Shown here: piece by piece, positions 3,823 to 62,035 of the stretch
Numbering within the stretch: the stretch's first letter is position 1
Layout: every line of letters begins with the position of its first letter
Notes under the pieces: model-generated
What the model was told of the DNA's origin: nothing
What the model saw: only the letters and a program-made list of their open reading frames with translations
The model's database searches: none
Assembly: GCF_055900595.2 (NCBI RefSeq)
Contig: NZ_CM148325.1
Length of the DNA: 64,000 bases
Strand: one strand, 5' to 3'
Made by a program: the position numbers and the translations under genes

Positions 3823-5151
3823 CTGATGAATCCCCTAATGATTTTGGTAAAAATCATTAAGTTAAGGTGGATACACATCTTGTCATATGATCAAATGGTT
3901 TCGCCAAAAATCAATAATCAGACAACAAAATGTGCGAACTCGATATTTTACACGACTCTCTTTACCAATTCTGCCCCGAATTACACTTAAAACGACTCAA
4001 CAGCTTAACGTTGGCTTGCCACGCCTTACTTGACTGTAAAACTCTCACTCTTACCGAACTTGGCCGTAACCTGCCAACCAAAGCGAGAACAAAACATAAC
4101 ATCAAACGAATCGACCGATTGTTAGGTAATCGTCACCTCCACAAAGAGCGACTCGCTGTATACCGTTGGCATGCTAGCTTTATCTGTTCGGGCAATACGA
4201 TGCCCATTGTACTTGTTGACTGGTCTGATATCCGTGAGCAAAAACGGCTTATGGTATTGCGAGCTTCAGTCGCACTACACGGTCGTTCTGTTACTCTTTA
4301 TGAGAAAGCGTTCCCGCTTTCAGAGCAATGTTCAAAGAAAGCTCATGACCAATTTCTAGCCGACCTTGCGAGCATTCTACCGAGTAACACCACACCGCTC
4401 ATTGTCAGTGATGCTGGCTTTAAAGTGCCATGGTATAAATCCGTTGAGAAGCTGGGTTGGTACTGGTTAAGTCGAGTAAGAGGAAAAGTACAATATGCAG
4501 ACCTAGGAGCGGAAAACTGGAAACCTATCAGCAACTTACATGATATGTCATCTAGTCACTCAAAGACTTTAGGCTATAAGAGGCTGACTAAAAGCAATCC
4601 AATCTCATGCCAAATTCTATTGTATAAATCTCGCTCTAAAGGCCGAAAAAATCAGCGCTCGACACGGACTCATTGTCACCACCCGTCACCTAAAATCTAC
4701 TCAGCGTCGGCAAAGGAGCCATGGATTCTAGCAACTAACTTACCTGTTGAAATTCGAACACCCAAACAACTTGTTAATATCTATTCGAAGCGAATGCAGA
4801 TTGAAGAAACCTTCCGAGACTTGAAAAGTCCTGCCTACGGACTAGGCCTACGCCATAGCCGAACGAGCAGCTCAGAGCGTTTTGATATCATGCTGCTAAT
4901 CGCCCTGATGCTTCAACTAACATGTTGGCTTGCGGGCGTTCATGCTCAGAAACAAGGTTGGGACAAGCACTTCCAGGCTAACACAGTCAGAAATCGAAAC
5001 GTACTCTCAACAGTTCGCTTAGGCATGGAAGTTTTGCGGCATTCTGGCTACACAATAACAAGGGAAGACTCACTCGTGGCTGCAACCCTGCTTACTCAAA
5101 ATCTATTCACACATGGTTACGTTTTGGGGAAATTATGAGGGGATCTCTCAG
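3823..5151 (+). mobile_element. IS10 insertion sequence (1329 bp)
   Basis: Begins CTGATGAATCCCCTAATGATTTTGGTAAAAATCATTAAG and ends ...ATTATGAGGGGATCTCTCAG (IS10 outside/inside ends from memory); length 1329 bp; encodes the transposase. Confidence 0.9.
3930..5138 (+). CDS. IS10 transposase
   Basis: 402-aa [70 protein letters not shown]..., recognised as Tn10/IS10 transposase. Confidence 0.9.
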
Positions 5152-5160
5152 TGCCAAGCA
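5152..5160. repeat. Right copy of the 9-bp IS10 target-site duplication (TGCCAAGCA)
   Basis: Same 9-mer as 3814..3822; removing IS10 plus one copy restores ...VNAKHYFSS... in frame. Confidence 0.8.
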
Positions 5161-6250
5161 CTACTTTTCCTCTAACGATGCAGATGATGGTGATACTACT
5201 TATGCCCGTCTTGGCTTCAAAGGTGAAACCCAAATCAACGATCAACTGACTGGTTTCGGTCAGTGGGAATATGAATTCAAAGGCAACCGCGCTGAATCTC
5301 AAGGTTCCTCCAAAGACAAAACCCGTCTTGCATTTGCAGGCCTGAAATTCGGTGACTACGGCTCAATCGATTACGGCCGTAACTACGGTGTAGCATACGA
5401 CATCGGTGCGTGGACTGACGTCCTGCCAGAATTCGGTGGTGATACCTGGACCCAAACAGATGTGTTCATGACTGGTCGCACTACTGGTGTTGCAACTTAT
5501 CGTAACAACGACTTCTTTGGTCTGGTCGATGGCCTGAACTTTGCTGCTCAGTATCAGGGTAAAAATGACCGCACTGACGTAACTGAAGCCAATGGTGATG
5601 GTTTCGGTTTCTCCACTACTTATGAGTATGAAGGATTCGGCGTGGGTGCAACCTATGCTAAATCAGATCGCACTGACGGTCAGGTCGCCTATGGTAAGAG
5701 CAAATTCAATGCCTCCGGCAAAAATGCGGAAGTATGGGCTGCAGGCCTGAAATATGATGCGAACAATATCTATCTGGCTACCACATATTCTGAAACTCAG
5801 AATATGACCGTTTTTGGTAATAACCATATTGCAAACAAAGCACAAAACTTTGAAGCAGTAGCACAATATCAGTTTGACTTCGGTCTGCGCCCATCTGTTG
5901 CTTACCTTCAGTCAAAAGGTAAAGACCTTGGTGTTCATGGTGACCGAGACTTAGTCAAGTATGTCGATGTCGGTGCTACTTACTACTTTAATAAAAACAT
6001 GTCCACTTTTGTTGATTACAAAATCAACTTAATTGACGATAGTAAGTTTACCAAAACAGCTGGTATTGATACTGATGACATCGTTGCTGTAGGTCTGGTT
6101 TACCAGTTCTAATCTGATTACGAAAAAGATATGTTGCGGGAGGCGTTGCCTCCCCAACATATAAGTGGCTCCCTCAAGCCACTTCCTTTAGAAGCACAAC
6201 CTTGCTTCTAACTATATAAACCTTCTGTTATATATTACCCTTTATTTTTG

Positions 6251-6301: not shown

Positions 6302-6700
6302 TTAATTAGAGTTATTAACAACGATATCCATCTCTAACCGGATATCTAATGCCATTAACATCCCTTCAATTATGCCCTCAGCCTTTTGTAACCTTTTCCC
6401 GATATAACCATCAGAGCAGCAATGCTTACCTGCCAGTGACATGAATGTCATACCGACTACATAATAATCTACTAATAAATCGTGCAAATCGCTGTTGTTC
6501 TTTTTCAGACGGGCCATGCACCCGCAAATGATCATCGCGTCATCGTCACAACATTGCGGGCGAGATTTTACTTTTGAAGGAATTAATCCCTTAAAACCGG
6601 CGGCAATGGACGACCAGGTCACATCTTCATGATTATTAGCCGCCCACGCTCCCCAACGCTCAAGAACCATCTGAATATCACGCATCAACTTACTCCACAA
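6302..6700 (-). CDS. quuD: Late-gene antiterminator Q-like protein
   Basis: 132-aa ORF ...[18 protein letters not shown]...[36 protein letters not shown]...; Q position upstream of the lysis cassette; recognised as DLP12 QuuD. Confidence 0.75.
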
Positions 6701-8175: not shown

Positions 8176-8208
8176 GCTTCCCCTCCGCAGAGGTCAAACG
8201 TTGGATGC

Positions 8209-8333
8209 AAAAAAACGCAGGTGCATTTCTGCATCTGTGAAGGGAGAAGAGAGTTTGGATTGTATGTGCGCATAAACGTCCCCGTTTAGCGCAGAAGTCA
8301 CCGGAGTTGTTCAGGCTCCGATGACATGATTAT
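8209..8333. repeat. Direct repeat A (about 125 bp) flanking the accessory cassette
   Basis: AAAAAAACGCAGGTGCATTTCTGCATCTGTGAAGGGAGAAGAGAGTTTGGATTGT... aligns with 10596..10720, with about 16 substitutions and one 1-bp indel by manual alignment. Confidence 0.75.
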
Positions 8334-8359
8334 GGCGGGTTGATTATTGAAAATCAAAG

Positions 8360-9037
8360 TTAATCGTACGAGTCGAGTATGTTCTGAAACGCCCAGCCAT
8401 CCTCCTTAGGAACACAAGACAGAATCGAATGAATTAGATCCCCTGCGGAAAGAAGTAACCCTTCTTGCCCTTCAAGAAAATAACGCCATTTAGGTCCATG
8501 AAACAGATTGTTCCGTAACCGGAAACAAACGAACAAGCACACTGCAAGCTGAGTCTCAGGCTCGGTTGTCATAGCTTGCATGGCTGAAAAACAGTCATCT
8601 CTCGCCTTTTGAGAGGTGTGGTGTAATTCCCCGCATAGGCTTTCAAACTTGCTTTTATCATTTACATAGCGTTCTGAAAAAAAATCGTATGTACACTTGA
8701 GAACCCCCAGATCCACAACCTCCATTTGCAAAAGACGATTGGCATATTTCGCACTTTTGCCTTGCCCCCCAGCGCAATTAAGAAGTAGAGACTCGAAGAA
8801 AGAGAAGTACAAAAAATAACGATTAACGGCGGTAAGGATAGATGGGGTAATCCTGCCTTCTGCATTAATCAACTCGTCAAATTCTGATGAAAAATCCAAC
8901 TGTTCATCCTTTTCCATTATATTCGGCCATTTATTGATATTGCACATCAGTCGCTCTTGGCAATGACAGGTTTGCTCTCGGTAATGTCTCAAACGCCCCA
9001 AAAAGTAGTCTCGCAAATGCTCTAGTTGCTCGCGCAT
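8360..9037 (-). CDS. Hypothetical protein with a HEPN-like Rx4H motif (possible abortive-infection RNase)
   Basis: 225-aa ORF; C-terminal region contains ...CLFVCFRLRNNLFHGPKWRYF... (R-x4-H); AT-rich; weak RBS, start codon uncertain (alternative MEKDEQLDF...). Confidence 0.45.
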   Translation of the reverse strand: MREQLEHLRDYFLGRLRHYREQTCHCQERLMCNINKWPNIMEKDEQLDFSSEFDELINAEGRITPSILTAVNRYFLYFSFFESLLLNCAGGQGKSAKYANRLLQMEVVDLGVLKCTYDFFSERYVNDKSKFESLCGELHHTSQKARDDCFSAMQAMTTEPETQLAVCLFVCFRLRNNLFHGPKWRYFLEGQEGLLLSAGDLIHSILSCVPKEDGWAFQNILDSYD

Positions 9038-9560: not shown

Positions 9561-10169
9561 CTATTGCAATCTAGCCTGACGCAAATGTGGCAATACCCTG
9601 CTCCACTTATTATCCTGCCAAGGCTGGAATTTTACATGTGCCGTTTTTCTGGCAAGGATTTCGCGCGCCTTATGTAGTATCTGGGGATATTCTTGCTCGA
9701 TAGAAGTAAAGCGACCGGCTTCGCGGTGTTCCGCAACCTGAAGAAGTGGAGTAACGTTCTGGCAGGCGGTTAACATCGTATCACTTGCTCGCCATAACCA
9801 AGCAAGTGTGCAAAGTTCGTTATCAGTGAATTGTTTTGTGATCGGGGATTGTTGAACTTCTCGATCGAGAATATCCAGAACCCAGCGGCGGAACTCTTTG
9901 GCTACAGGAGTTCGTGCAAACATGGCGATCAAATGGGCTCCGCGAAGGCTAAATACTCGAGACTCCTGCATTCCACGAGGGGTGGTCACTTTGACCACCC
10001 TTGTCATCATATCTGTAAATTCATCTGAGTGACGAGAGTAAATGCGCTGAACTGCTTTATCGTCCGCATATTCCAGAGCTAAACCAACTTCAGTGGCAGT
10101 AAGCCAAATTCTGTTATTGTGGCAAATTGGGGTAAACGTCGTTTTGTGGAATGCTAATTGAGTAGTCAT
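9561..10169 (-). CDS. Bro-N-like / phage antirepressor-family protein
   Basis: 202-aa ORF with N-terminal ...FHKTTFTPICHNNRIWLTATEVGLALEY...RGMQESRVFSLRGAHLIAMFARTPVAKEFRRWVLDIL...; good SD (GAGGTGA) 5 nt upstream of ATG. Confidence 0.55.
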   Translation of the reverse strand: MTTQLAFHKTTFTPICHNNRIWLTATEVGLALEYADDKAVQRIYSRHSDEFTDMMTRVVKVTTPRGMQESRVFSLRGAHLIAMFARTPVAKEFRRWVLDILDREVQQSPITKQFTDNELCTLAWLWRASDTMLTACQNVTPLLQVAEHREAGRFTSIEQEYPQILHKAREILARKTAHVKFQPWQDNKWSRVLPHLRQARLQ

Positions 10170-10331
10170 AGTATCACCTCATCAGGTTAACCATCACCAC
10201 CAACGACGCCAATCGACTGGTGGTGAACTGTGCAAGGTTGGCGTAACCGGCTACTCAAACCCGGCGCTCCCGAAGAAGCCCTCACACAGCCCACCATAAT
10301 TTGGGCGTAGCCGTGCTTAGCGCATAAAAAA

Positions 10332-10346
10332 ACCGCTTAACGCGGT
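10332..10346 (-). terminator. Possible rho-independent terminator upstream of the Bro-N-like gene
   Basis: Minus strand ACCGC-GTTAA-GCGGT followed by TTTTTTTAT; short stem. Confidence 0.35.
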
Positions 10347-10432
10347 ATGCGTTGAGTAGTATTCCGGGACGCCAATCCCGTGTGCCGATTTTGCGGCAAC
10401 GCACAGAATATAGCGCCGGATAAATAATGTCG

Positions 10433-11469: not shown

Positions 11470-12171
11470 TCATACACTTGCTCCTTTCAGCCCAAACTTA
11501 GCTTTGATTTCTGCGATCTTCGCCAGAGCCTGTGCACGATTTAGAGGTCTACCGCCCATGACAGGAAGTTGTTTTACTGGTTCAGGTATCGCCTCACCAC
11601 GGTTAATTCGCGCGGTCATACAGGTCAGCTCATCGGCAGCTTTACGCCGTAATTCCGCGTCAGTCAGCGCATTGGCCCGCATGTTCTGGTACAGGTTGGT
11701 AACCAACCAGTAGTGCGCGTTTGATTTCCATGGATAAGACTCTGCGTCCGGATACAGGCCACGCTTCCGGCAATACTCGTAAACCATATCAACCAGCTCG
11801 CTAGCGTTTGGCAGCCCGGCGGTAACGGATGCTTCTTCCCGGCACCAGGCAACAAACTGCCCGGGTGATGGCAGGAATGGTCGATTCTGCCGACGGGCTA
11901 CGCGCATTCCAGCGTTAACCTGTTCCATCGTGGTGATCCCATTTTCCCGGAAAGCCAGAACCCACTGGCGGCGGATTTCGTTCAGTTCGTTCTGGTCACG
12001 GTTAGCCAGGCTCGCAGGGAAAGTTGCCAGTAACTGGCTGAACACACCGTTGATGATCTGCGCTACCTGCTGTACCTGCGGCTTTTCGTCGTACTGTTCC
12101 GGCATGTTGTTGGCGATCCGACGCATCTGCTCACGGTCAAAGTTAACCATCTGTGCGGCGATGTTTTTCAT
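11470..12171 (-). CDS. P: Replication protein P (DnaB helicase loader), lambda-like
   Basis: 233-aa ORF MKNIAAQMVNFDREQMRRIANNMPEQYDEKPQVQQVAQIINGVFSQLLATFPASLANRDQNE..., recognised as near-identical to lambda P. Confidence 0.92.
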   Translation of the reverse strand: MKNIAAQMVNFDREQMRRIANNMPEQYDEKPQVQQVAQIINGVFSQLLATFPASLANRDQNELNEIRRQWVLAFRENGITTMEQVNAGMRVARRQNRPFLPSPGQFVAWCREEASVTAGLPNASELVDMVYEYCRKRGLYPDAESYPWKSNAHYWLVTNLYQNMRANALTDAELRRKAADELTCMTARINRGEAIPEPVKQLPVMGGRPLNRAQALAKIAEIKAKFGLKGASV

Positions 12172-13097
12172 AGATCAACCCCGTAAATCCAGTCTGTGTT
12201 TGTCAGGTCGAGTTTTGGTTTGCTGGCTGTCACGCCTGCCTGTTGCTTGTTACGGTTGATTTCGAGCTGGGTCCACTTGTCGCGGAGTTTGGCCGGACTT
12301 AGCACGTTACCGGACCAGAAGTTGTCCTGGCATGCCCAGCGGAACAGCACGCACATGTCGCGGTGGTTACGTCCGTCACGTTCACGCATCAGGCGGATAT
12401 CGTTAGCCCACCCTGCAAAATTCGGTTTTCTGGCTGATGGCGCGATGGTCTTCACCATGTCAAACATCCACTCTGCGGCGGTCAGGTCTTCTGCTGTCCC
12501 CCACTTGCTGCCGCTCTGAATCGCAGCATCCGGTTTCACCACAGGAAGGTCGTTTTCTGGCTGATCAGAGGATTCGCCAGAATTCTCGGACGAATAAGGT
12601 TTTATATTGTCTTTTGTTAGTTTGTCTTTTGTGTTTACCTGATTCGGGTAAACGCCTTTACCTGATTTGGGTAAACTTTTCTTACCTGATTCAGGTAAAT
12701 TTACCTCTTTCAGGTAAACTTTATTTTTCTTACCTGATTCGGGTAATGTTGACCATTCACTGACCACATTATTAATACCGATATTCCGCCCGCTCTGAAT
12801 CAAAATCCCACGCTTTACCAGAACACTTTTTGCAGCAGAACACTTGTGCGGTAATATCTCGGTCAATCCAGACAGTTGCTCGTTGCTCACCCAATCCAGT
12901 TTTTTATTAAAGCCATATGTTTTGCGCATGACAGCCAGGAAGACCAGAAGCTGGTGCTGTGTTAATCCGGCCAGCATCACAGCTTCCAGCAACTCATTTG
13001 CAATGCGCGTATAACCATCATCGAGATCTGCCACGCGCGGCTCCTTTTGTGCCGCATCCGGCACTGGAAAATTGAATATCTCAGCAGTGTTTGCCAT
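12168..13097 (-). CDS. O: Replication initiator O (lambda-like C-terminus, divergent iteron-binding N-terminus)
   Basis: Start taken at MANTAEIFNFP... (SD GGGAGGA upstream) inside track ORF 12168..13187; C-terminus ...WMFDMVKTIAPSARKPNFAGWANDIRLMRERDGRNHRDMCVLFRWACQDNFWSGNVLSPAKLRDKWTQLEINRNKQQAGVTASKPKLDLTNTDWIYGVDL matches lambda O. Confidence 0.85.
   Translation of the reverse strand: MANTAEIFNFPVPDAAQKEPRVADLDDGYTRIANELLEAVMLAGLTQHQLLVFLAVMRKTYGFNKKLDWVSNEQLSGLTEILPHKCSAAKSVLVKRGILIQSGRNIGINNVVSEWSTLPESGKKNKVYLKEVNLPESGKKSLPKSGKGVYPNQVNTKDKLTKDNIKPYSSENSGESSDQPENDLPVVKPDAAIQSGSKWGTAEDLTAAEWMFDMVKTIAPSARKPNFAGWANDIRLMRERDGRNHRDMCVLFRWACQDNFWSGNVLSPAKLRDKWTQLEINRNKQQAGVTASKPKLDLTNTDWIYGVDL
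12635..12746. repeat. Phage replication origin: five iterons (TTACCTGATTCGGGTAAA-like inverted repeats) inside the O gene, next to an AT-rich stretch
   Basis: Copies at about 12635, 12658, 12682, 12701 and 12730, each with TTACC...GGTAA arms; AT-rich run at 12600..12634. Confidence 0.65.
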
Positions 13098-13183
13098 AAT
13101 TCCTCCCGCAATGAGTGTGTTACGATTTGCACCTGAAAGTCGGTTCTGTTCCAGCAGACCGGCTTTCGCCATTTCTGAACCTG

Positions 13184-13723
13184 TCATATCGCCCCCAGCA
13201 TGGTAGTAACCATCGCCATCAATGGACCAGCCAGATCTGGGTCCACACGAAACATCGATACAATACCTTCACTAATTTCCTTCAGTTTCTGGTGGCGTGG
13301 TGCGTTGAGAATGACAGCCTGTTTTGCCTCACTGAGTTCCTTTTCCATTTCAGCCAGCCGAGCTATGAAGCTATCCTGCTCAACCAGGTGGCCGCGATAT
13401 TCCAGCGGTAGTACCGCCAGAATTGCCGGGGTCAGTTCACGCACGTTATTTCGGTATTTTTCAGAATCGAATTTGTTATCGAGGAAGCGGAACAGCTTCT
13501 GGCGTGCACGGCTGACATCATCAGGGAAATCGATGGTGCCGCCGCCCTGCTCCCGATACTCATTCACAATGAGTGCGGCAACGACATCCTGATTATCTAC
13601 AGCCGACCAGGCGCGGACGGCATCACGGATTTTTTCGTGGCCTGGAGCTTGTTTTGTTTGAGAACGATTTATCACCGCAGTCGGGCTAAATCCGCTAGTC
13701 TGTTGGTATGTAAGTGGTTGCAT
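13184..13723 (-). CDS. CII-position regulator, YdaT-like
   Basis: 179-aa ORF with strong SD (AAAGGAG); ...VNEYREQGGGTIDFP...LTPAILAVLPLEYRGHL... resembles Rac YdaT (EEYLRQGGGELPL / LIPAILAILPRELRHRL, from memory). Confidence 0.55.
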   Translation of the reverse strand: MQPLTYQQTSGFSPTAVINRSQTKQAPGHEKIRDAVRAWSAVDNQDVVAALIVNEYREQGGGTIDFPDDVSRARQKLFRFLDNKFDSEKYRNNVRELTPAILAVLPLEYRGHLVEQDSFIARLAEMEKELSEAKQAVILNAPRHQKLKEISEGIVSMFRVDPDLAGPLMAMVTTMLGAI

Positions 13724-13792
13724 AATTGACTCCTTTAGTTTGAATTGACTGTTAAGTTGATTGCTTATTGTTAAAGAGCGTGAAATGGAAAT

Positions 13793-14023
13793 TTAAGCTG
13801 CGTTCTTTTCAGTGTGTGGAAACAACTTCGGAAGATCCGGGCGAATCTGGTATGCCTTCACTACTCCACCAGTAGCCGTAACAATGCTGCCGACATGTTC
13901 AGGGGATACCTTTGCTTTGTTGTGAAGCCACTTATAGACGGCCTGCTGTGAAACTTCGCAGGCAGCGCCTAGTTTCTTTTGTGAACCAACGATATTGATC
14001 GCTGTTTTGATGGCTGGGTTCAT
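13793..14023 (-). CDS. cro: Cro-like HTH repressor (YdaS-type)
   Basis: 76-aa ORF MNPAIKTAINIVGSQKKLGAACEVSQQAVYKWLHNKAKVSPEHV...; divergent from cI. Confidence 0.6.
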   Translation of the reverse strand: MNPAIKTAINIVGSQKKLGAACEVSQQAVYKWLHNKAKVSPEHVGSIVTATGGVVKAYQIRPDLPKLFPHTEKNAA

Positions 14024-14127
14024 AACAACCTCCGTGGTTAATTTGAATCAAGATTAAAACTATGGTTGTTTTTAGTCAACAACCATTTTCGTTTGATGAA
14101 ATAAAACCTTGGTTGTACATTTGGACT
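14024..14127. promoter_or_regulatory. Divergent cro/cI control region (oR-like operators with pR/pRM)
   Basis: Perfect palindrome ATGGTTGTT-tttagtc-AACAACCAT at 14062..14086 plus further TGGTTGT/ACAACA half-sites; cI AUG at 14128 lacks an SD, consistent with a leaderless pRM-type transcript. Confidence 0.5.
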
Positions 14128-14817
14128 ATGAAAACAACACTCTCAGAAAGACTTAAAGAAGCCAGATTAGCGCGAGGCCTTACACAAAAGGCGCTTGGGG
14201 ATTTGGTCGGGGTTAGCCAAGCAGCTATTCAGAAAATCGAAACAGGGAAAGCTAACCAAACAACTAAAATCGTGGAGATCGCGAACGCTTTGGGTGTGCG
14301 CGCAGAATGGTTATCTTCTGGCGTTGGAAATATGTCAGACAGTACAGTGCAACCAATACAAACAACTGTCAGCCATTCCAAATACTTTAAGATTGACGTT
14401 CTTGATATCGAAGTGAGTGCCGGGCCGGGAGTCATCAACCGTGAGTTTGTAGAAGTTCTACGTTCGGTTGAGTATTCGTTTGACGATGCTCGTCACATGT
14501 TCGATGGCAGGAAGGCGGAAAATATCCGTATCATTAACGTACGCGGTGACAGCATGTCAGGAACGATCGAACCAGGTGATCTGCTATTCGTTGATATCAC
14601 TGTTAAATCTTTCGACGGTGATGGTATCTATGCGTTTCTGTACGACGACACAGCCCATGTAAAGCGCCTGCAAATGATGAAGGATAAACTGCTGGTTATC
14701 TCTGATAACAAGAGCTACTCACCGTGGGACCCAATCGAGAAAGACGAGATGAACCGGGTATTCATCTTCGGGAAAGTCATCGGGAGCATGCCGCAGACGT
14801 ATAGGAAGCATGGATAA
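14128..14817 (+). CDS. cI: CI-type prophage repressor (N-terminal HTH, C-terminal LexA-like S24 peptidase)
   Basis: MKTTLSERLKEARLARGLTQKALGDLVGVSQAAIQKIETGK... then ...EVSAGPG...INVRGDSMSGTIEPGDLLFVD...HVKRL... (Ala-Gly cleavage site, Ser/Lys dyad). Confidence 0.85.
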   Translation: MKTTLSERLKEARLARGLTQKALGDLVGVSQAAIQKIETGKANQTTKIVEIANALGVRAEWLSSGVGNMSDSTVQPIQTTVSHSKYFKIDVLDIEVSAGPGVINREFVEVLRSVEYSFDDARHMFDGRKAENIRIINVRGDSMSGTIEPGDLLFVDITVKSFDGDGIYAFLYDDTAHVKRLQMMKDKLLVISDNKSYSPWDPIEKDEMNRVFIFGKVIGSMPQTYRKHG

Positions 14818-14912: not shown

Positions 14913-15638
14913 ATGGAAGAACGTGGGAATTACCTAATAGACCCCCTAGAAGTAATTGGTTCTGGCGGTTTTGGCCTTGTAGAAAAAATAAGGTTATATA
15001 ACTCACAAAGAAAAATTTGTGGTCTATATGCCAGAAAAATTTTACGACCTGATGCAACAGATCCTGAACTCTTTACCAGATTTGAACGAGAAGTAAGATA
15101 TCAAACTGAATGCCTGCATACTAATATTGTCCAAATATTCATATGCCACTTACAGAATGCTCAGCCTTGGTTCGTAATGGAACTAGCAGAAACAAATCTT
15201 GAAGAAGAAATAAAAAGTGGAACTCTTACAAAGGCTGAAAAAATCTCTATTGTAAAAATGGTACTAAATGCCGTCGGATGGATTCATAAGAAAGGATATC
15301 TTCATCGGGATATAAAACCACTAAATGTACTAAAATTTAAAGATGGAATTTATAAGTTATCTGACTTCGGCCTTGCAAAAAATGTGTCACCAGATGCCAA
15401 TACACAGCTATTAACACAAATTGGCCAATACCCCGCTACTCCTAAATACTTTGATTACAACGTTTTCCTCAACGGATATTCAAAACAATCAGATATATAT
15501 TCAATTGGTATTTTAATTGAAGAATTAAATATTGATGGTTTTGATGATATAATAAACAAATGTACGCATAGACAACTTAACAAAAGATTCCTGACCGTAG
15601 AGCAGATCTTTGAGGAATTGGAGTTGAAACGCTTATGA
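14913..15638 (+). CDS. Hanks-type (eukaryotic-like) Ser/Thr protein kinase, compact catalytic domain only
   Basis: 241 aa; glycine-rich loop GSGGFG; catalytic loop HRDIKPLN; DFG motif SDFGLAK; SD AGGA 7 nt upstream; AT-rich. Confidence 0.85.
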   Translation: MEERGNYLIDPLEVIGSGGFGLVEKIRLYNSQRKICGLYARKILRPDATDPELFTRFEREVRYQTECLHTNIVQIFICHLQNAQPWFVMELAETNLEEEIKSGTLTKAEKISIVKMVLNAVGWIHKKGYLHRDIKPLNVLKFKDGIYKLSDFGLAKNVSPDANTQLLTQIGQYPATPKYFDYNVFLNGYSKQSDIYSIGILIEELNIDGFDDIINKCTHRQLNKRFLTVEQIFEELELKRL

Positions 15639-16378
15639 TTAGCATACTCTCATCATCCATATTTTCTGTACCAAAACATAATGGCAGGGAAAATCAAGAT
15701 AGCGTGCTTTATCCACTTCAAACACCAAATGGTTATCTTATGGCTATAGCTGATGGGGTTGGTGGTTATAAAGGAGGAAAAGAAGCATCTGCAGCAGTAA
15801 TAAATCATTTGTATAGTATTAAAGACAGCTTCACTCATGAAGACAATGTCTTATCCTTACTTAAGACCCTACAAGAAAAGGTGGCATCTCTTTCGTCAGT
15901 TGATAAAGAATTAGCATCTGCTGCTACAACTTTAACAATGTGCCTACTTCACAATCAAGGTCTAACAATTATACATGTAGGTGACTGTCGTGTTTATTTA
16001 AAAAATGGAAATAAGCTAATCCAATTAACAACAGATCATACTCAACATCAAATGTTGATAGATAGCGGTATTTATACAGCTCGACAGCTCAAAAATGCAA
16101 AAGGTAAAAATATTATTACAACTGCACTTGCTGCCAAGATCCCCCTTCAACATCAAGTCATAAATATTGATAAAGATGAACTTCCTCTTGACGATGGTGT
16201 TCTATCTCTATTCATCATGTCTGATGGCGCGCATACCTTTTGGGAGCAACGCCCACGATTTTCTTACCGTACATTGTCAACCGCATCAAGGTTTGCCTCC
16301 AGCCTAATGCGAAGAATAGAGACAAAAGGCCCGACTGACGATTATTCTCTTATAGCGGTAAATGTAAAGTATTTGTAA
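15635..16378 (+). CDS. PP2C-family (PPM) Ser/Thr protein phosphatase
   Basis: 247 aa; AIADGVGG and HVGDCRVYL metal-binding motifs, ...FIMSDGAHT...; start ATG overlaps the kinase stop (ATGA). Confidence 0.8.
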   Translation: MISILSSSIFSVPKHNGRENQDSVLYPLQTPNGYLMAIADGVGGYKGGKEASAAVINHLYSIKDSFTHEDNVLSLLKTLQEKVASLSSVDKELASAATTLTMCLLHNQGLTIIHVGDCRVYLKNGNKLIQLTTDHTQHQMLIDSGIYTARQLKNAKGKNIITTALAAKIPLQHQVINIDKDELPLDDGVLSLFIMSDGAHTFWEQRPRFSYRTLSTASRFASSLMRRIETKGPTDDYSLIAVNVKYL

Positions 16379-16382
16379 ACTT

Positions 16383-16410
16383 CCCGGCCACCGTGCCGGG
16401 TTTTCTTTTA
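16383..16410 (+). terminator. Rho-independent terminator ending the cI-kinase-phosphatase operon
   Basis: CCCGGC-CACCGT-GCCGGG followed by TTTTCTTTTAT. Confidence 0.6.
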
Positions 16411-16479
16411 TCCCCTCCCCTCATCACGTATACCGTTCAAAAAACCACCACAATCTCCCTTCAGTTATCGCTATGCGAT

Positions 16480-16620
16480 GCAAGTCACAAAATAAATCCA
16501 TCCTAAATACAACCAGTTACATCTAAAACAACCAATAAAACAACTTTTGTTGTTGACGATAAAACAACTATAGTTTTAAATAAATTCATCGCAACAACAC
16601 AACGATACGGCAACCACCTG
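16480..16620 (+). promoter_or_regulatory. Putative oL/pL region (operator half-sites and a candidate leftward promoter)
   Basis: Several ACAACCA/ACAAC half-sites similar to the oR sites; candidate -35 TTGACG and -10 TAAATA with an 18-bp spacer reading toward gam-bet-exo. Confidence 0.35.
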
Positions 16621-16774
16621 ATTCACCGTTGCGATGACCGCTTAGATCCGCAGCTTGAATTTCAGCAGGCTTCGGGGAGTGCGAGGGATGAAACGGACGC
16701 GTGAACGTCGGTGTGACCAGCTGAAATCAACTCAACATTTCATACCTTAGTCGCTTCAACGAGGCGGCTTAGTT

Positions 16775-17065
16775 ATGACAACCGGCGGCCATCCACCGCC
16801 TGAATACGCGCAGAAGTCTTTATATGTTCAGCAGCCCAGCTTACGGGCAGGAGTTTTTATGGTTCATCAACATTACGGAACGCAGACCGTTAATCGAGGT
16901 GCGGTCATGCCAGGAATGCTGGTCAAACACAAAGATGGTACCTGGACTGCATCAGCTAATTTACGCGGACGGCTTTATCTGCATCGCGGCATCGAGCGCA
17001 CTTATACCCGTGATTTGCTCGTGGAAGTTTTTCTCGACGGACGCGGTAACGGCCTGAATCACTAA
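16775..17065 (+). CDS. Hypothetical small protein between pL and gam (96-aa track ORF; an internal start with SD AGGAG at 16859 gives 68 aa)
   Basis: ...[68 protein letters not shown]; occupies the kil/cIII position; not recognised as N. Confidence 0.35.
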
Positions 17066-34859: not shown

Positions 34860-35255
34860 CCGGATGCGGCGTGAACGCCTTATCCGGCCTACTAATCCGG
34901 TACCCATTGTAGGCCTGATAAGACGCGTCAAGCGTCGCATCAGGCATGGTGCGCCGATTACCGGATGCGGCGTGAACGCCTTATCCGACTACCAATCCGG
35001 TACCCATTGTAGGCCTGATAAGACGCGTCAAGCGTCGCATCAGGCATGGTGCGCCGATTACCGGATGCGGCGTGAACGCCTTATCCGACTACCAATCCGG
35101 TACCCATTGTAGGCCTGATAAGACGCGTCAAGCGTCGCATCAGGCATGGTGCGCCGATTACCGGATGCGGCGTGAACGCCTTATCCGACTACCAATCCGG
35201 TACCCATTGTAGGCCTGATAAGACGCGTCAAGCGTCGCATCAGGCATGGTGCGCC
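34860..35255. repeat. Tandem BIME/REP array (four units of about 100 bp, each holding two inverted REP palindromes)
   Basis: Unit CCGGATGCGGCGTGAACGCCTTATCCG...GTAGGCCTGATAAGACGCGTCAAGCGTCGCATCAGGC repeats at 34860, 34961, 35061 and 35161 with near-identical content. Confidence 0.8.
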
Positions 35256-43349: not shown

Positions 43350-43477
43350 CTCATACCACTCGCCTGATTATTTTTAGCTATGTTGGATTTTGCCACGGTT
43401 TATACCGTGGCTTTTTTTGTAGTCAATTCAGGTAAAAAAAGATGCGATATAAATCGCATCCGCTTTAAAGGTAAGGG

Positions 43478-61924: not shown

Positions 61925-62035
61925 TGAAATGCGATGTGCTGGTTTGTAGGCCTGATAAGACGCGCCAGCGTCGCATCAGGCATCCGCGCATAGCCGCCGG
62001 ATGCGGCGTGAACGCCTTATCCGGCCTACCAAACC
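61925..62035. repeat. REP/BIME element
   Basis: GTAGGCCTGATAAGACGCGCCAGCGTCGCATCAGGC ... GCCGGATGCGGCGTGAACGCCTTATCCGGCCTAC downstream of ybbN. Confidence 0.7.

Follow-up and report, generated by a model that had tools for sequence, protein, structure and literature searches.

Is a prophage immunity region in which YdaS- and YdaT-type genes stand in the cro and cII positions, next to an S24-peptidase cI and lambda-type replication genes, an unusual hybrid switch or an ordinary lambdoid one? The question arises from the initial annotation of a stretch of 64,000 nucleotides (contig NZ_CM148325.1 of RefSeq assembly GCF_055900595.2; the whole stretch is hereafter called the window), which described the region as a hybrid. 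A YdaS-type Cro, a YdaT-type CII, an S24 cI and lambda-type O and P are all confirmed, but the framing as a notable hybrid is not supported, as phi80 and HK639 are built alike. We regard the region as an ordinary lambdoid lysis/lysogeny module of the phi80 kind that is probably functional (probability about 0.85), and for which we infer operators of the 434 type and a CII/pRE step. The gene identities are backed by profile matches in Pfam, NCBIfam and PHROGs, by alignment and by fold match (Table 1).

Table 1. Genes and predicted regulatory sites of the immunity region and its surroundings, in window coordinates
Feature	Position	Strand	Basis or remark
Promoter upstream of ninB, TTGATT-17-CATAAT	8329-8357	-	One box half-site doubles as -35
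Perfect YdaT box TTGATTATTGAAAATCAA upstream of ninB	8340-8357		Only perfect match in 64 kb (about 0.02 expected)
P, lambda type	11470-12171	-	PF06992, E 9e-62; 98.3% identical to lambda P over 233 aa
O, lambda type	12168-13187	-	PF04492, TIGR01610; 67.6% identical to lambda O
Five ori iterons, TACCTGATTCGGGTAA-like, inside O	12636-12746		Pattern scan
cII, YdaT family, phi80 type, 179 aa	13184-13723	-	PF06254; phrog_163; 66% identical to phi80 CII
Predicted YdaT/CII box in cII, + strand TTGAGAACGATTTATCAC	13658-13675		cII nt +49 to +66; 2 mismatches to TTGATW-N6-WATCAA
Predicted pRE -10, TAGTCT	13696-13701	+	Inferred; 20 nt from the box, whose centre is thus at about -41.5
cro, YdaS family, 76 aa	13793-14023	-	PF15943; best PDB matches; phrog_35
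Fourth 14-bp candidate site ACAACCTCCGTGGT	14025-14038		Overlaps cro ribosome-binding site; conserved in PSTCR7lys
Predicted pR, TTGACT-17-TAATCT	14051-14079	-	Read by eye; same register in PSTCR7lys, TTGATT-17-TATTAT
OR1 candidate AAAACTATGGTTGT	14056-14069		Over pR spacer/-10; site scan, PSTCR7lys comparison
Perfect 9-7-9 palindrome ATGGTTGTT-TTTAGTC-AACAACCAT	14062-14086		Exact match; over OR1/OR2 inner halves and pR -35
OR2 candidate ACAACCATTTTCGT	14079-14092		Abuts pRM -35; site scan, PSTCR7lys comparison
Predicted pRM, TTGATG-17-TACATT	14093-14121	+	Read by eye; same register in PSTCR7lys, TTGAAT-17-TATCTT
OR3 candidate AAAACCTTGGTTGT	14103-14116		Over pRM spacer/-10; site scan
cI, 434-repressor-like HTH and S24 autopeptidase domain, 229 aa	14128-14817	+	Profiles, alignment, PGAP start
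OL2 candidate, perfect ACAACTTTTGTTGT	16540-16553		Sole exact ACAAC-N4-GTTGT in 64 kb
Predicted pL, TTGACG-17-TTAAAT	16553-16581	+	Read by eye
OL1 candidate ACAACTATAGTTTT	16564-16577		Identical in PSTCR7lys

Genes of the immunity region

The product of the gene in the cII position had been said to resemble YdaT of the Rac prophage, and this resemblance is borne out. The YdaT profile PF06254 matches with E 2.7e-29 (101.9 bits against a cut-off of 21, with 90 of its 92 positions covered), phrog_163, "CII-like transcriptional activator", with E 3.8e-66, and Rac YdaT itself is 35% identical over 93 aa (BLASTP, E 6e-12). Both segments named as shared are present, but their wording differs (EYREQGGG here and EYLRQGGG in Rac, TPAILAVLP here and IPAILAILP in Rac). 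Alignment with the YdaS/YdaT and CP-933P regulators likewise reveals similarity, including the helix QKLFRFLD, which reads QKIFRWLD in CP-933P.

The AlphaFold model of CII (mean pLDDT 79.8) has helices at residues 29-113 and long helices at 119-178. Foldseek against the PDB gave just two significant matches, both at probability 1.00, namely 3c4r and 8bt1, the latter being CP-933P YdaT (TM-score on target 0.66-0.70, identity about 27-29%). As modelled, CII has a POU-like DNA-binding domain and, C-terminal to it, long helices, and so shows the YdaT fold with the five-helix domain and long helix of this family. In the solved YdaT structure 8bt1 the long C-terminal helices form a tetramerisation bundle. 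Residue R79, invariant in 25 aligned homologues, is the conserved arginine of the recognition helix alpha3, in which R57 of Rac YdaT is required for binding (PMC11879457). Compared with the Rac and CP-933P YdaT, CII of the phi80 type is extended by about 28 residues at the N-terminus and is also longer at the C-terminus.

No sequence similarity to lambda CII is detectable (BLASTP E 0.11 over 28 aa), and YdaT is the only Pfam family matched. The view that YdaT is an equivalent of CII agrees with the literature (PMC8630535, PMC9986795), and the phi80 homologue is the genetically defined cII. The 179-aa protein holds the CII position and is probably CII-like in action, outside the lambda CII family.

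The small HTH protein assigned to the cro position proved to be a YdaS-family protein, with a match to PF15943 (E 4e-17, 62.2 bits) above the curated cut-off of 30. HTH_3 and phrog_35, "transcriptional repressor", were matched as well, the best PDB matches are the all-alpha Cro proteins 3bd1 and 5w8y, and identity to Rac YdaS is 30%. The gene is flanked by cI and cII and runs opposite to cI, as expected of a Cro analogue of this family.

The start of cI is almost certainly the ATG at 14128 (MKTTL...), which is also the PGAP start, and not 14062 as in the list of open reading frames. Its product matches HTH_3 (E 6.5e-13) and Peptidase_S24 (PF00717, E 1.5e-18), and among solved structures the N-terminal domain is closest to the 434 repressor (E 4.5e-9). 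A MAFFT alignment that included E. coli LexA, the cI of phi80 and two relatives places Gly99, Ser142 and Lys179 in invariant columns with LexA Gly85, Ser119 and Lys156, and Ala98 opposite LexA Ala84. Residues 98-99 are the sole Ala-Gly of the protein, and Ser and Lys are 37 residues apart, as in LexA. The LexA-like autocleavage domain with an Ala-Gly site, as initially proposed, is therefore well founded, and it is reasonable to infer from these features that the prophage is SOS-responsive.

The lambda type of the replication genes is likewise upheld by the PF04492 and PF06992 matches and by identity to lambda O and P; O has the N-terminal iteron-binding domain and contains the iterons, and P is a homologue of lambda P. 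The alignment with lambda O begins at residue 31 of the open reading frame, and the true start of O may be Met31, at 13097. Farther away, Q and the lysis genes are separated by an IS10-like element, and therefore the prophage may not finish the lytic cycle even with a working switch. The left end of the prophage is outside the window.

Candidate operators and promoters

The perfect 9-7-9 palindrome reported between cI and cro is present and exact, and it is unique in 64 kb even at 3 mismatches (0.08 expected). The recurrence of related half-sites upstream of the Red genes is equally real: in the whole window, ACAAC/GTTGT pentamers peak at 16471-16620 (7 per 150 bp), about 570 bp upstream of gam, followed by OR (5 per 150 bp), where 0.34 are expected.

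Operators of phage 434 have the form ACAA-N6-TTGT. Clustered 14-bp sites of this form, together with a 434-like HTH in cI, suggest operators of the 434 type in the window. Seven matches to ACAAC-N4-GTTGT with at most one mismatch exist in 64 kb, five of them within 230 bp of OR plus OL. Every candidate OR site has one degenerate half, and OR2 departs from the consensus at 2 positions. The candidate layout is lambda-like: 23 bp separate the centres of OR1 and OR2, 24 bp those of OR2 and OR3, and two further candidates lie at OL.

The Providencia phage PSTCR7lys, whose cI is 50% identical and has the same recognition helix VSQAAIQKIETG, keeps four OR and two OL sites at the same spacing, with halves swapped or repaired at two sites. 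Its fourth site reads AAAACCTCCGTTGT, with the consensus half on the opposite side, its counterpart of OR3 is a perfect ACAACTGAAGTTGT, and ACAACTTTAGTTGT occupies the place of OL2; the centres of OL1 and OL2 are 24 bp apart in both PSTCR7lys and the window. Phage mEp460 was discarded as a third comparator, as its recognition helix is different and ACAAC sites are absent. The proposed operator specificity distinct from lambda and phi80 is supported, and the phi80 operators in JX871397 are unrelated in sequence.

Among the predicted promoters, pL hardly differs from pR over the stretch that includes the -35 and -10 elements, and the -10 of pR matches just three of six consensus positions. The predicted start of pRM (14128) falls on the A of the cI ATG and would leave the cI mRNA without a leader, as has been described for cI and paaR2 transcripts (PMC8630535). 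The other predicted starts are near 14044 for pR and 8322 for the ninB promoter, both on the - strand, near 16588 for pL, and near 13708 on the + strand for pRE. A consensus promoter scan called none of pR, pRM and pL, and an Rfam search of the whole window gave no match in the immunity region or upstream of ninB.

Predicted CII targets

The YdaT box TTGATT-N6-AATCAA has been defined experimentally (PMC9986795, PMC11879457). With 30% identity to each other, the YdaT proteins of Rac and CP-933P share this box as their target and cross-react. The box footprinted in Rac is situated at the 5' end of ydaT, and the promoter activated from it is about 190 bp distant, in contrast to the -41.5 predicted here (PMC11879457). 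The predicted box within cII of the window is the best match in the first 150 nt, at +49, as in all eight homologous cII genes, and the ENT1 copy is perfect. Over these eight genes the box accumulates 17 mismatches, compared with a mean of 31 upon synonymous-codon resampling (0 of 5000 resamplings reach 17), a conservation that is partly confounded by protein coding and by the shared ancestry of the genes. A TAnnnT hexamer, the predicted -10 of pRE, is equally distant from the box in all eight homologues despite differing encoded residues.

The perfect box upstream of ninB is likewise conserved in position across phi80-type phages. A perfect box or one with a single mismatch is found in the same place relative to ninB in phi80, HK225, HK639, CobraSix, KO-TP1, phage 82, mEp237 and ENT1, with spacer sequences that differ among those phages, and the promoter at this place is annotated in the record of phage 82 (X92588). 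No mention of this box was found in three papers on YdaT (PMC8630535, PMC9986795, PMC11879457).

Several other candidates were set aside. The direct repeat TTGACT-N6-TTGATT in the cro-cII spacer (13745-13762), considered as a CII site by analogy with lambda, is a self-derived pattern and shows no enrichment across the window (26 matches, 21 expected); it belongs to the cro module because phage 4A7, with a cII 98% identical, has a wholly different spacer. A CP-933P box near OR (14034-14051, 2 mismatches) is not conserved in position. For a plus-strand promoter beside the ninB box (TATGTT at 8378-8383, in class II geometry), similarity to other phages ends just past the box on that side. ENT1, meant as a negative control for the ninB box, proved to encode a YdaT-type CII of diverged sequence whose gene contains a perfect box, and thus became a further positive.

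We tentatively suggest that CII of the phi80/YdaT type may have two conserved targets, a weaker in-gene box serving pRE and the perfect box upstream of ninB controlling nin and Q, although we would not call this the probable state of affairs. The perfect box, about 5.3 kb downstream, would form the -35 and spacer of the conserved promoter upstream of ninB and Q. CII bound there would shut off or otherwise control antitermination-independent expression of nin and Q, and this control would play the part that paQ, a CII-dependent antisense promoter, has in lambda. As the YdaT tetramer has two DNA-binding faces (PMC9986795), CII might bridge both boxes in a loop enclosing the replication genes. 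The conserved boxes are predicted CII targets that can be tested directly.

Alternative explanations

The palindrome can be read in more than one way. That the 25-bp sequence is itself the operator of one cI or Cro dimer, in an unusual hybrid switch, would account for its perfection and uniqueness in the window and for its overlap with the -35 of pR, and the 9-bp arms fit one long operator too. PSTCR7lys moreover retains at OR the arrangement GTTGTT-N7-AACAAC, whose arms carry a paired G:C to A:T change. The single-operator reading is probably wrong because the half-site spacing differs, being GTTGT-N9-ACAAC at OR and one base wider (N10) at OL in both phages. It would also leave one such site per control region and hence no OR2 or OR3, the 14 bp between its half-site centres are a long distance for a 434-like HTH dimer, and the architecture is not unusual. 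We therefore consider it unlikely and prefer the 14-bp model because this fits OR, OL, a diverged phage with the same recognition helix and the predicted promoters; the palindrome more likely represents the facing inner halves of two adjacent 14-bp sites than one 25-bp operator. Scarcely credible is that it forms an RNA hairpin or intrinsic terminator instead of a protein-binding site. On either strand the terminator scan reports a stem of 9 bp and a loop of 7 nt, plus a T-rich tail, but the stem has only 3 G-C pairs, the palindrome extends across the predicted -35 of pR between divergent genes, and its half-sites recur unpaired or otherwise spaced in OR and OL.

Two further explanations concern the regulators themselves. 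Pfam names the two families "Bacterial toxin YdaS" and "Bacterial toxin ydaT", and older reports of toxicity upon overexpression (cited in PMC5917428 and PMC5917430) would agree with a toxin-antitoxin pair in place of Cro and CII. This is very improbable in view of the DNA binding, promoter regulation and lack of bona fide toxin activity described for such proteins (PMC8630535, PMC9986795, PMC11879457), of the cro and cII positions occupied by the genes between cI and O, of the genetic definition of the phi80 homologue as cII, and of the fold, a DNA-binding domain with C-terminal helices that form a tetramerisation bundle in the solved YdaT. The label "toxin YdaT/YdaS" of Pfam and PGAP misleads for a cro/cII pair. 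Alternatively, the region might be a decayed remnant with non-functional regulators, as in cryptic prophages such as Rac, which the IS10-like insertion and the missing left end would suit. However, P, O, cII, cro and cI are all intact and 95-99% identical to genes of viable isolated phages, and the predicted operators, promoters and catalytic residues are intact as well; we judge decay to be improbable, if less so than the toxin-antitoxin explanation.

Proposed mechanism of the switch

For the standard, probably functional module that we favour, the sequence features suggest the following course. Dimers of cI would bind the 14-bp ACAAC-N4-GTTGT operators, three at OR, one more over the cro ribosome-binding site and two or more at OL, and would repress pR and pL. 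From OR2, centred at about -42, cI may activate pRM, giving the leaderless cI mRNA, and OR3 would turn pRM off at high cI concentration. Cro would compete with cI for the shared sites. Activated RecA would trigger self-cleavage of cI at Ala98-Gly99, and the prophage is therefore proposed to be SOS-inducible. After infection, CII tetramers would bind the YdaT box at +49 to +66 of cII and activate the leftward pRE, which would run antisense through cro into cI.

Comparison with known systems and mosaicism

Phi80, the nearest model, has been known since the 1980s. Its immunity region (JX871397, X13065; cI, gene 30/cro, cII, genes 15 and 14) has the same gene order and domain make-up as that of the window: an S24 cI, a small HTH Cro and a CII of about 180 aa from the YdaT family, followed by O-like and P-like genes, and a palindromic YdaT-type box upstream of ninB. 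Its cI is only 24% identical, however, the Cro match is barely detectable, and its own operators are unrelated 19-bp sequences, so that the two phages would not share immunity. O and P of phi80 are 41% and 48% identical to those of the window. An N gene and an oop-like M3 RNA belong to phi80 but were not found in the window. HK639 carries exactly the same three Pfam families (S24, YdaS, YdaT), and the pairing of an S24 cI with a YdaT-type CII also occurs in phi80, HK639 and CobraSix.

The cryptic prophages CP-933P (PaaR2/YdaS/YdaT) and Rac (RacR/YdaS/YdaT) have Cro and CII analogues of the same Pfam families and the same YdaT fold, and their box TTGATT-N6-AATCAA reappears in the window. In contrast to cI, PaaR2 and RacR are without an S24 cleavage domain and not SOS-cleavable (PMC8630535); the profile search gave no Pfam match for RacR. 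The operators proposed here share with 434 the form ACAA-N6-TTGT, the length of 14 bp and the number of three per control region, but the recognition helix is QAAIQK in the window cI and QQSIEQ in 434, the fifth operator base is here a conserved C, and Cro is YdaS/P22-Cro-like and not 434 Cro-like. Lambda resembles the window in the spacing of its divergent pR and pRM (about 84 bp) and of its three operators (23-24 bp), in a leaderless cI and in a CII target within the 5' end of cII (all of them predicted in the window), as well as in its O-P genes (P 98% identical). It differs in its CII, as described above, in a Cro of a different fold class, and in a direct-repeat CII target (TTGC-N6-TTGC), which is an inverted repeat in the window.

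The "hybrid" make-up is routine lambdoid mosaicism via module exchange, with a module junction exactly at the cII ribosome-binding site and ATG. Phages of the 4A7 type share cII (98% identical) but differ in cro, OR and the HTH domain of cI; in 4A7, divergence starts at the base preceding the cII ribosome-binding site. This OR accompanies the cII in 39 of 80 IMG/VR loci and is absent from the remainder; these loci served just for counting immunity types, their cII (96-99% identical) being too close to be helpful for covariation. In ST160, a related cI is paired with a short 93-aa c1 activator and not with a YdaT-type CII.

Among 5426 complete E. coli genomes, 1503 contain at least 80% of the cassette (95-99% identity), and the entire cassette is found in five isolated phages, IdasGreatGrand, PhiR34_1, PhiR5_1, PhiR47_2 and PhiR26_1 (96.6-97.7% DNA identity). 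The PGAP names of cI, cro and cII already agree with those of the initial annotation. YdaS has been described as the Cro analogue and YdaT as the CII analogue, with homology to phi80 CII stated (PMC8630535, PMC9986795), for CP-933P YdaT in PMC8630535 (mBio 2021). The cassette, its gene roles and its architecture are already known; with the equivalence of YdaS/YdaT to Cro/CII in print since 2021-2025, the gene-level account of the region re-describes a very common annotated cassette. YdaT-type CII is far more widespread in Enterobacteriaceae than lambda's own CII. The predicted operators and promoters would define one immunity group, which covers about one quarter of sequenced E. coli genomes and may be useful for forecasting superinfection immunity and the SOS inducibility of prophages.

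Gene content and relatives of the immunity region

The segment at 11470-14817 carries the genes for P, O, a CII-position and a Cro-position protein on one strand and the repressor gene on the other (see table), and it is a known, very common phi80-type lambdoid immunity module. YdaS and YdaT have been argued to be analogues of Cro and CII, and homology between CP-933P YdaT and the CII of phi80 has been noted (PMC8630535); both the structure and the binding site of YdaT are reported (PMC9986795, PMC11879457). The 179-aa protein is 66% identical to phi80 CII over its full length and 35% identical to Rac YdaT (BLASTP, E 6e-12), with which it shares the QGGG and PAILA(V/I)LP segments. Searched against the PDB, its AlphaFold model (mean pLDDT 79.8) gives significant matches to two YdaT structures, 3c4r and 8bt1, and to no others, and PHROGs classes it as "CII-like transcriptional activator". 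The Cro-position protein and Rac YdaS share 30% identity, and P and O are 98.3% and 67.6% identical to their lambda counterparts. PGAP uses the names "toxin YdaT domain-containing protein", "YdaS family helix-turn-helix protein" and "S24 family peptidase".

The repressor gene almost certainly starts at the ATG at 14128, as in the PGAP annotation of a 99% identical genome. Residues 98-99 are the only Ala-Gly of cI. When cI is aligned with E. coli LexA, Ala98 pairs with Ala84, and Gly99, Ser142 and Lys179 form invariant columns with Gly85, Ser119 and Lys156. All elements listed in the initial annotation are present, and its gene identities and cleavage motifs were right; its "hybrid" framing is not upheld. 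The immunity region of phi80 likewise combines an S24 cI with a small HTH Cro and the same CII type, followed by O-like and P-like genes. The three Pfam families are exactly those of HK639, and in CobraSix, too, an S24 cI accompanies this type of CII. Of 5426 complete E. coli genomes, 1503 carry the 1.8-kb cassette (95-99% identity, at least 80% coverage), and so do five isolated phages.

The mosaic nature of the region is real, but routine. In phage 4A7 cII is 98% identical and complete divergence begins just upstream of its ATG, and among 80 IMG/VR loci with this cII the same OR (the operator region between cI and cro) is present in 39 and absent in 41. The cI of Salmonella phage ST160 is 75% identical overall with a different HTH domain, and its partner there is a short c1 activator of 93 aa. 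The cI of the window is nearly identical to that of 4A7 and ST160 from about residue 46 (TKIVEIANALGV...) onwards; the preceding HTH domain, recognition helix included, is unlike theirs, and their operators differ too. Of the 339-aa O ORF, only the part from residue 31 onwards aligns with lambda O. A start at Met31 (13097), if real, would leave an 86-nt gap after cII, at the position where phi80 and HK639 have an oop-like M3 RNA.

Coordinates of genes, candidate operators and predicted promoters
Feature	Position	Strand	Basis
P	11470-12171	-	PF06992 profile match
O	12168-13187	-	PF04492 profile match
Five iterons	12636-12746		
cII-position gene, 179 aa	13184-13723	-	PF06254 (YdaT), E 2.7e-29
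cro-position gene, 76 aa	13793-14023	-	PF15943 (YdaS), E 4e-17
cI repressor gene	ORF listed from 14062, ATG 14128	+	HTH_3 + Peptidase_S24
Candidate OR sites (14 bp)	14025, 14056, 14079, 14103		pattern scan
Candidate OL sites (14 bp)	16540 (perfect), 16564		pattern scan; 24 bp apart
Predicted pR	14079-14051	-	TTGACT-17-TAATCT, read from sequence
Predicted pRM	14093-14121	+	TTGATG-17-TACATT, read from sequence
Predicted pL	16553-16581	+	TTGACG-17-TTAAAT, read from sequence

Candidate operators and predicted promoters

The best solved-structure match of the cI N-terminal domain is the phage 434 repressor (E 4.5e-9); phage 434 operators are 14 bp long, with the form ACAA-N6-TTGT. ACAAC/GTTGT pentamers are densest in the 64 kb at 16471-16620 (7 per 150 bp, 0.34 expected), between the cI operon and kil-gam-bet-exo, which bears out the earlier remark that half-sites recur upstream of the Red genes; the second densest cluster is OR (5 per 150 bp against the same expectation). 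Allowing at most one mismatch, ACAAC-N4-GTTGT matches seven times in the 64 kb, five of them in OR or in OL, the operator region upstream of the Red genes; OR2 is counted among the OR sites at two mismatches. The centres of the sites at 14056, 14079 and 14103 are spaced 23 and 24 bp apart.

The 9-7-9 palindrome, exact at 14062-14086 and occurring once in the window, had been taken as a single operator. It reads instead as the facing consensus halves of candidate OR1 and OR2. The facing half-sites are separated by N9 at OR and by N10 at OL, and this one-base difference disfavours a single long operator, whereas it is harmless for two adjacent ones. In the diverged Providencia phage PSTCR7lys, whose cI is 50% identical overall with the same recognition helix (VSQAAIQKIETG) and whose Cro matches, all six sites are kept at unchanged spacings; OR3 is a perfect ACAACTGAAGTTGT, and the site over the cro ribosome-binding site has its consensus half switched to the opposite side.

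Transcription from the predicted pRM would begin with the first base of the cI start codon, giving a leaderless cI mRNA. Relative to this start OR2 lies at about -42 and OR3 at about -18, and OR1 lies at about -18 from the predicted pR start, a layout like that of lambda. A consensus promoter scanner did not call pR, pRM or pL; in the same registers PSTCR7lys has better hexamers than the window.

Neighbouring features

The position immediately after cI, taken by rexAB in lambda, is occupied here by genes for a Ser/Thr protein kinase (Pkinase, E 3e-32) and for a PP2C phosphatase (14913-16378, plus strand), with a terminator-like site at 16383-16400. The kinase is hit by three PADLOC defence models (PD-T4-6, Stk2 and mad6), and together with the phosphatase it probably forms a defence pair that the lysogen expresses. 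No N-like antiterminator gene was found between pL and kil (16582-16860), the sole ORF there encoding an arginine-rich 20-aa peptide (16688-16750; MKRTRERRCDQLKSTQHFIP); the related phage HK639 has a putL-like antiterminator RNA annotated at this position.

Rfam matches to isrK (10326-10398) and C4 antisense RNA (10216-10301) immediately precede a gene for an Ant-like anti-repressor (9561-10169). The region 9561-10398 (minus strand) is a P1/P7-style anti-repressor module within the nin region, which could give a second induction route besides cI cleavage. An RNA-OUT match (Rfam, 97 bits) with two adjacent ORFs (402 and 325 aa) in 3868-6112 indicates that an IS10-like element has inserted between Q (6302-6700) and the lysis genes; the insertion may leave this prophage copy defective for late gene expression. 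An integrase gene (20383-21546, plus strand) adjoins a tRNA gene (21565-21638, minus strand), probably marking the attachment site and the prophage's right end. Right of about 21.6 kb the window is host chromosome, as shown by Rfam matches to four naRNA4 (REP-type) copies and STnc480 (34912-35190, 43356-43422, 61949-62026).

Putative CII targets

Rac and CP-933P YdaT, only 30% identical to each other, both bind TTGATT-N6-AATCAA (the YdaT box) and cross-react (PMC11879457, PMC9986795). The recognition helix of the 179-aa protein, QKLFRFLD, is similar to QKIFRWLD of CP-933P and keeps the essential Arg. In all eight diverged phi80-type cII genes the best box match within the first 150 nt lies at +49 to +66, being perfect in ENT1, with one mismatch in mEp237 and two in the window (13658-13675). 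The eight genes together show 17 mismatches against a mean of 31 under synonymous-codon resampling, and none of 5000 resamplings reached 17. An antisense-strand TAnnnT hexamer stands exactly 20 nt from the box in 8/8 genes; the encoded residues differ. The box segment encodes an N-terminal tail with pLDDT <50 in the model, and the box footprinted in Rac overlaps the start codon of ydaT (PMC11879457). From these observations we infer a pRE at this box, with the box centre near -41.5 and a start near 13708 (plus strand); in Rac, by contrast, YdaT activation works over about 190 bp.

The only perfect YdaT box in the 64 kb (about 0.02 expected) lies at 8340-8357, upstream of ninB. A perfect or one-mismatch box is placed likewise relative to ninB in phi80, HK225, HK639, CobraSix, KO-TP1, phage 82, mEp237 and ENT1, with conserved half-sites and differing spacers, and in the whole phi80 genome it is the sole match at up to two mismatches. 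Every one of these phages with an available cII region has a YdaT-type CII (the partial phage 82 record excludes cII); lambda has no YdaT box between cI and Q. In most of them one half-site serves as the -35 element of a promoter that faces ninB (TTGATT-17-CATAAT); this promoter is annotated in the phage 82 record X92588. This conservation, together with the YdaT-type CII and the promoter overlap, suggests that CII would control the nin/Q region through the box; alternatively, shared ancestry of these phages may lie behind the co-occurrence of box and YdaT-type CII.

Downstream of the box and its promoter a hairpin (8297-8325) has a loop (CTGAACAAC) conserved in phi80, HK639, mEp237 and ENT1, while its stems differ yet still pair; the next hairpin, at 8205-8239, is terminator-like and has a T run. 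Rfam gave no match for this hairpin region, and 8205-8357 may hold an RNA or regulatory element that has gone unrecognised.

What the analysis adds to a well-known type of immunity region is modest and testable: a refined operator map and two conserved YdaT boxes. The putative link between CII and the nin/Q region is its one lead that may be new.
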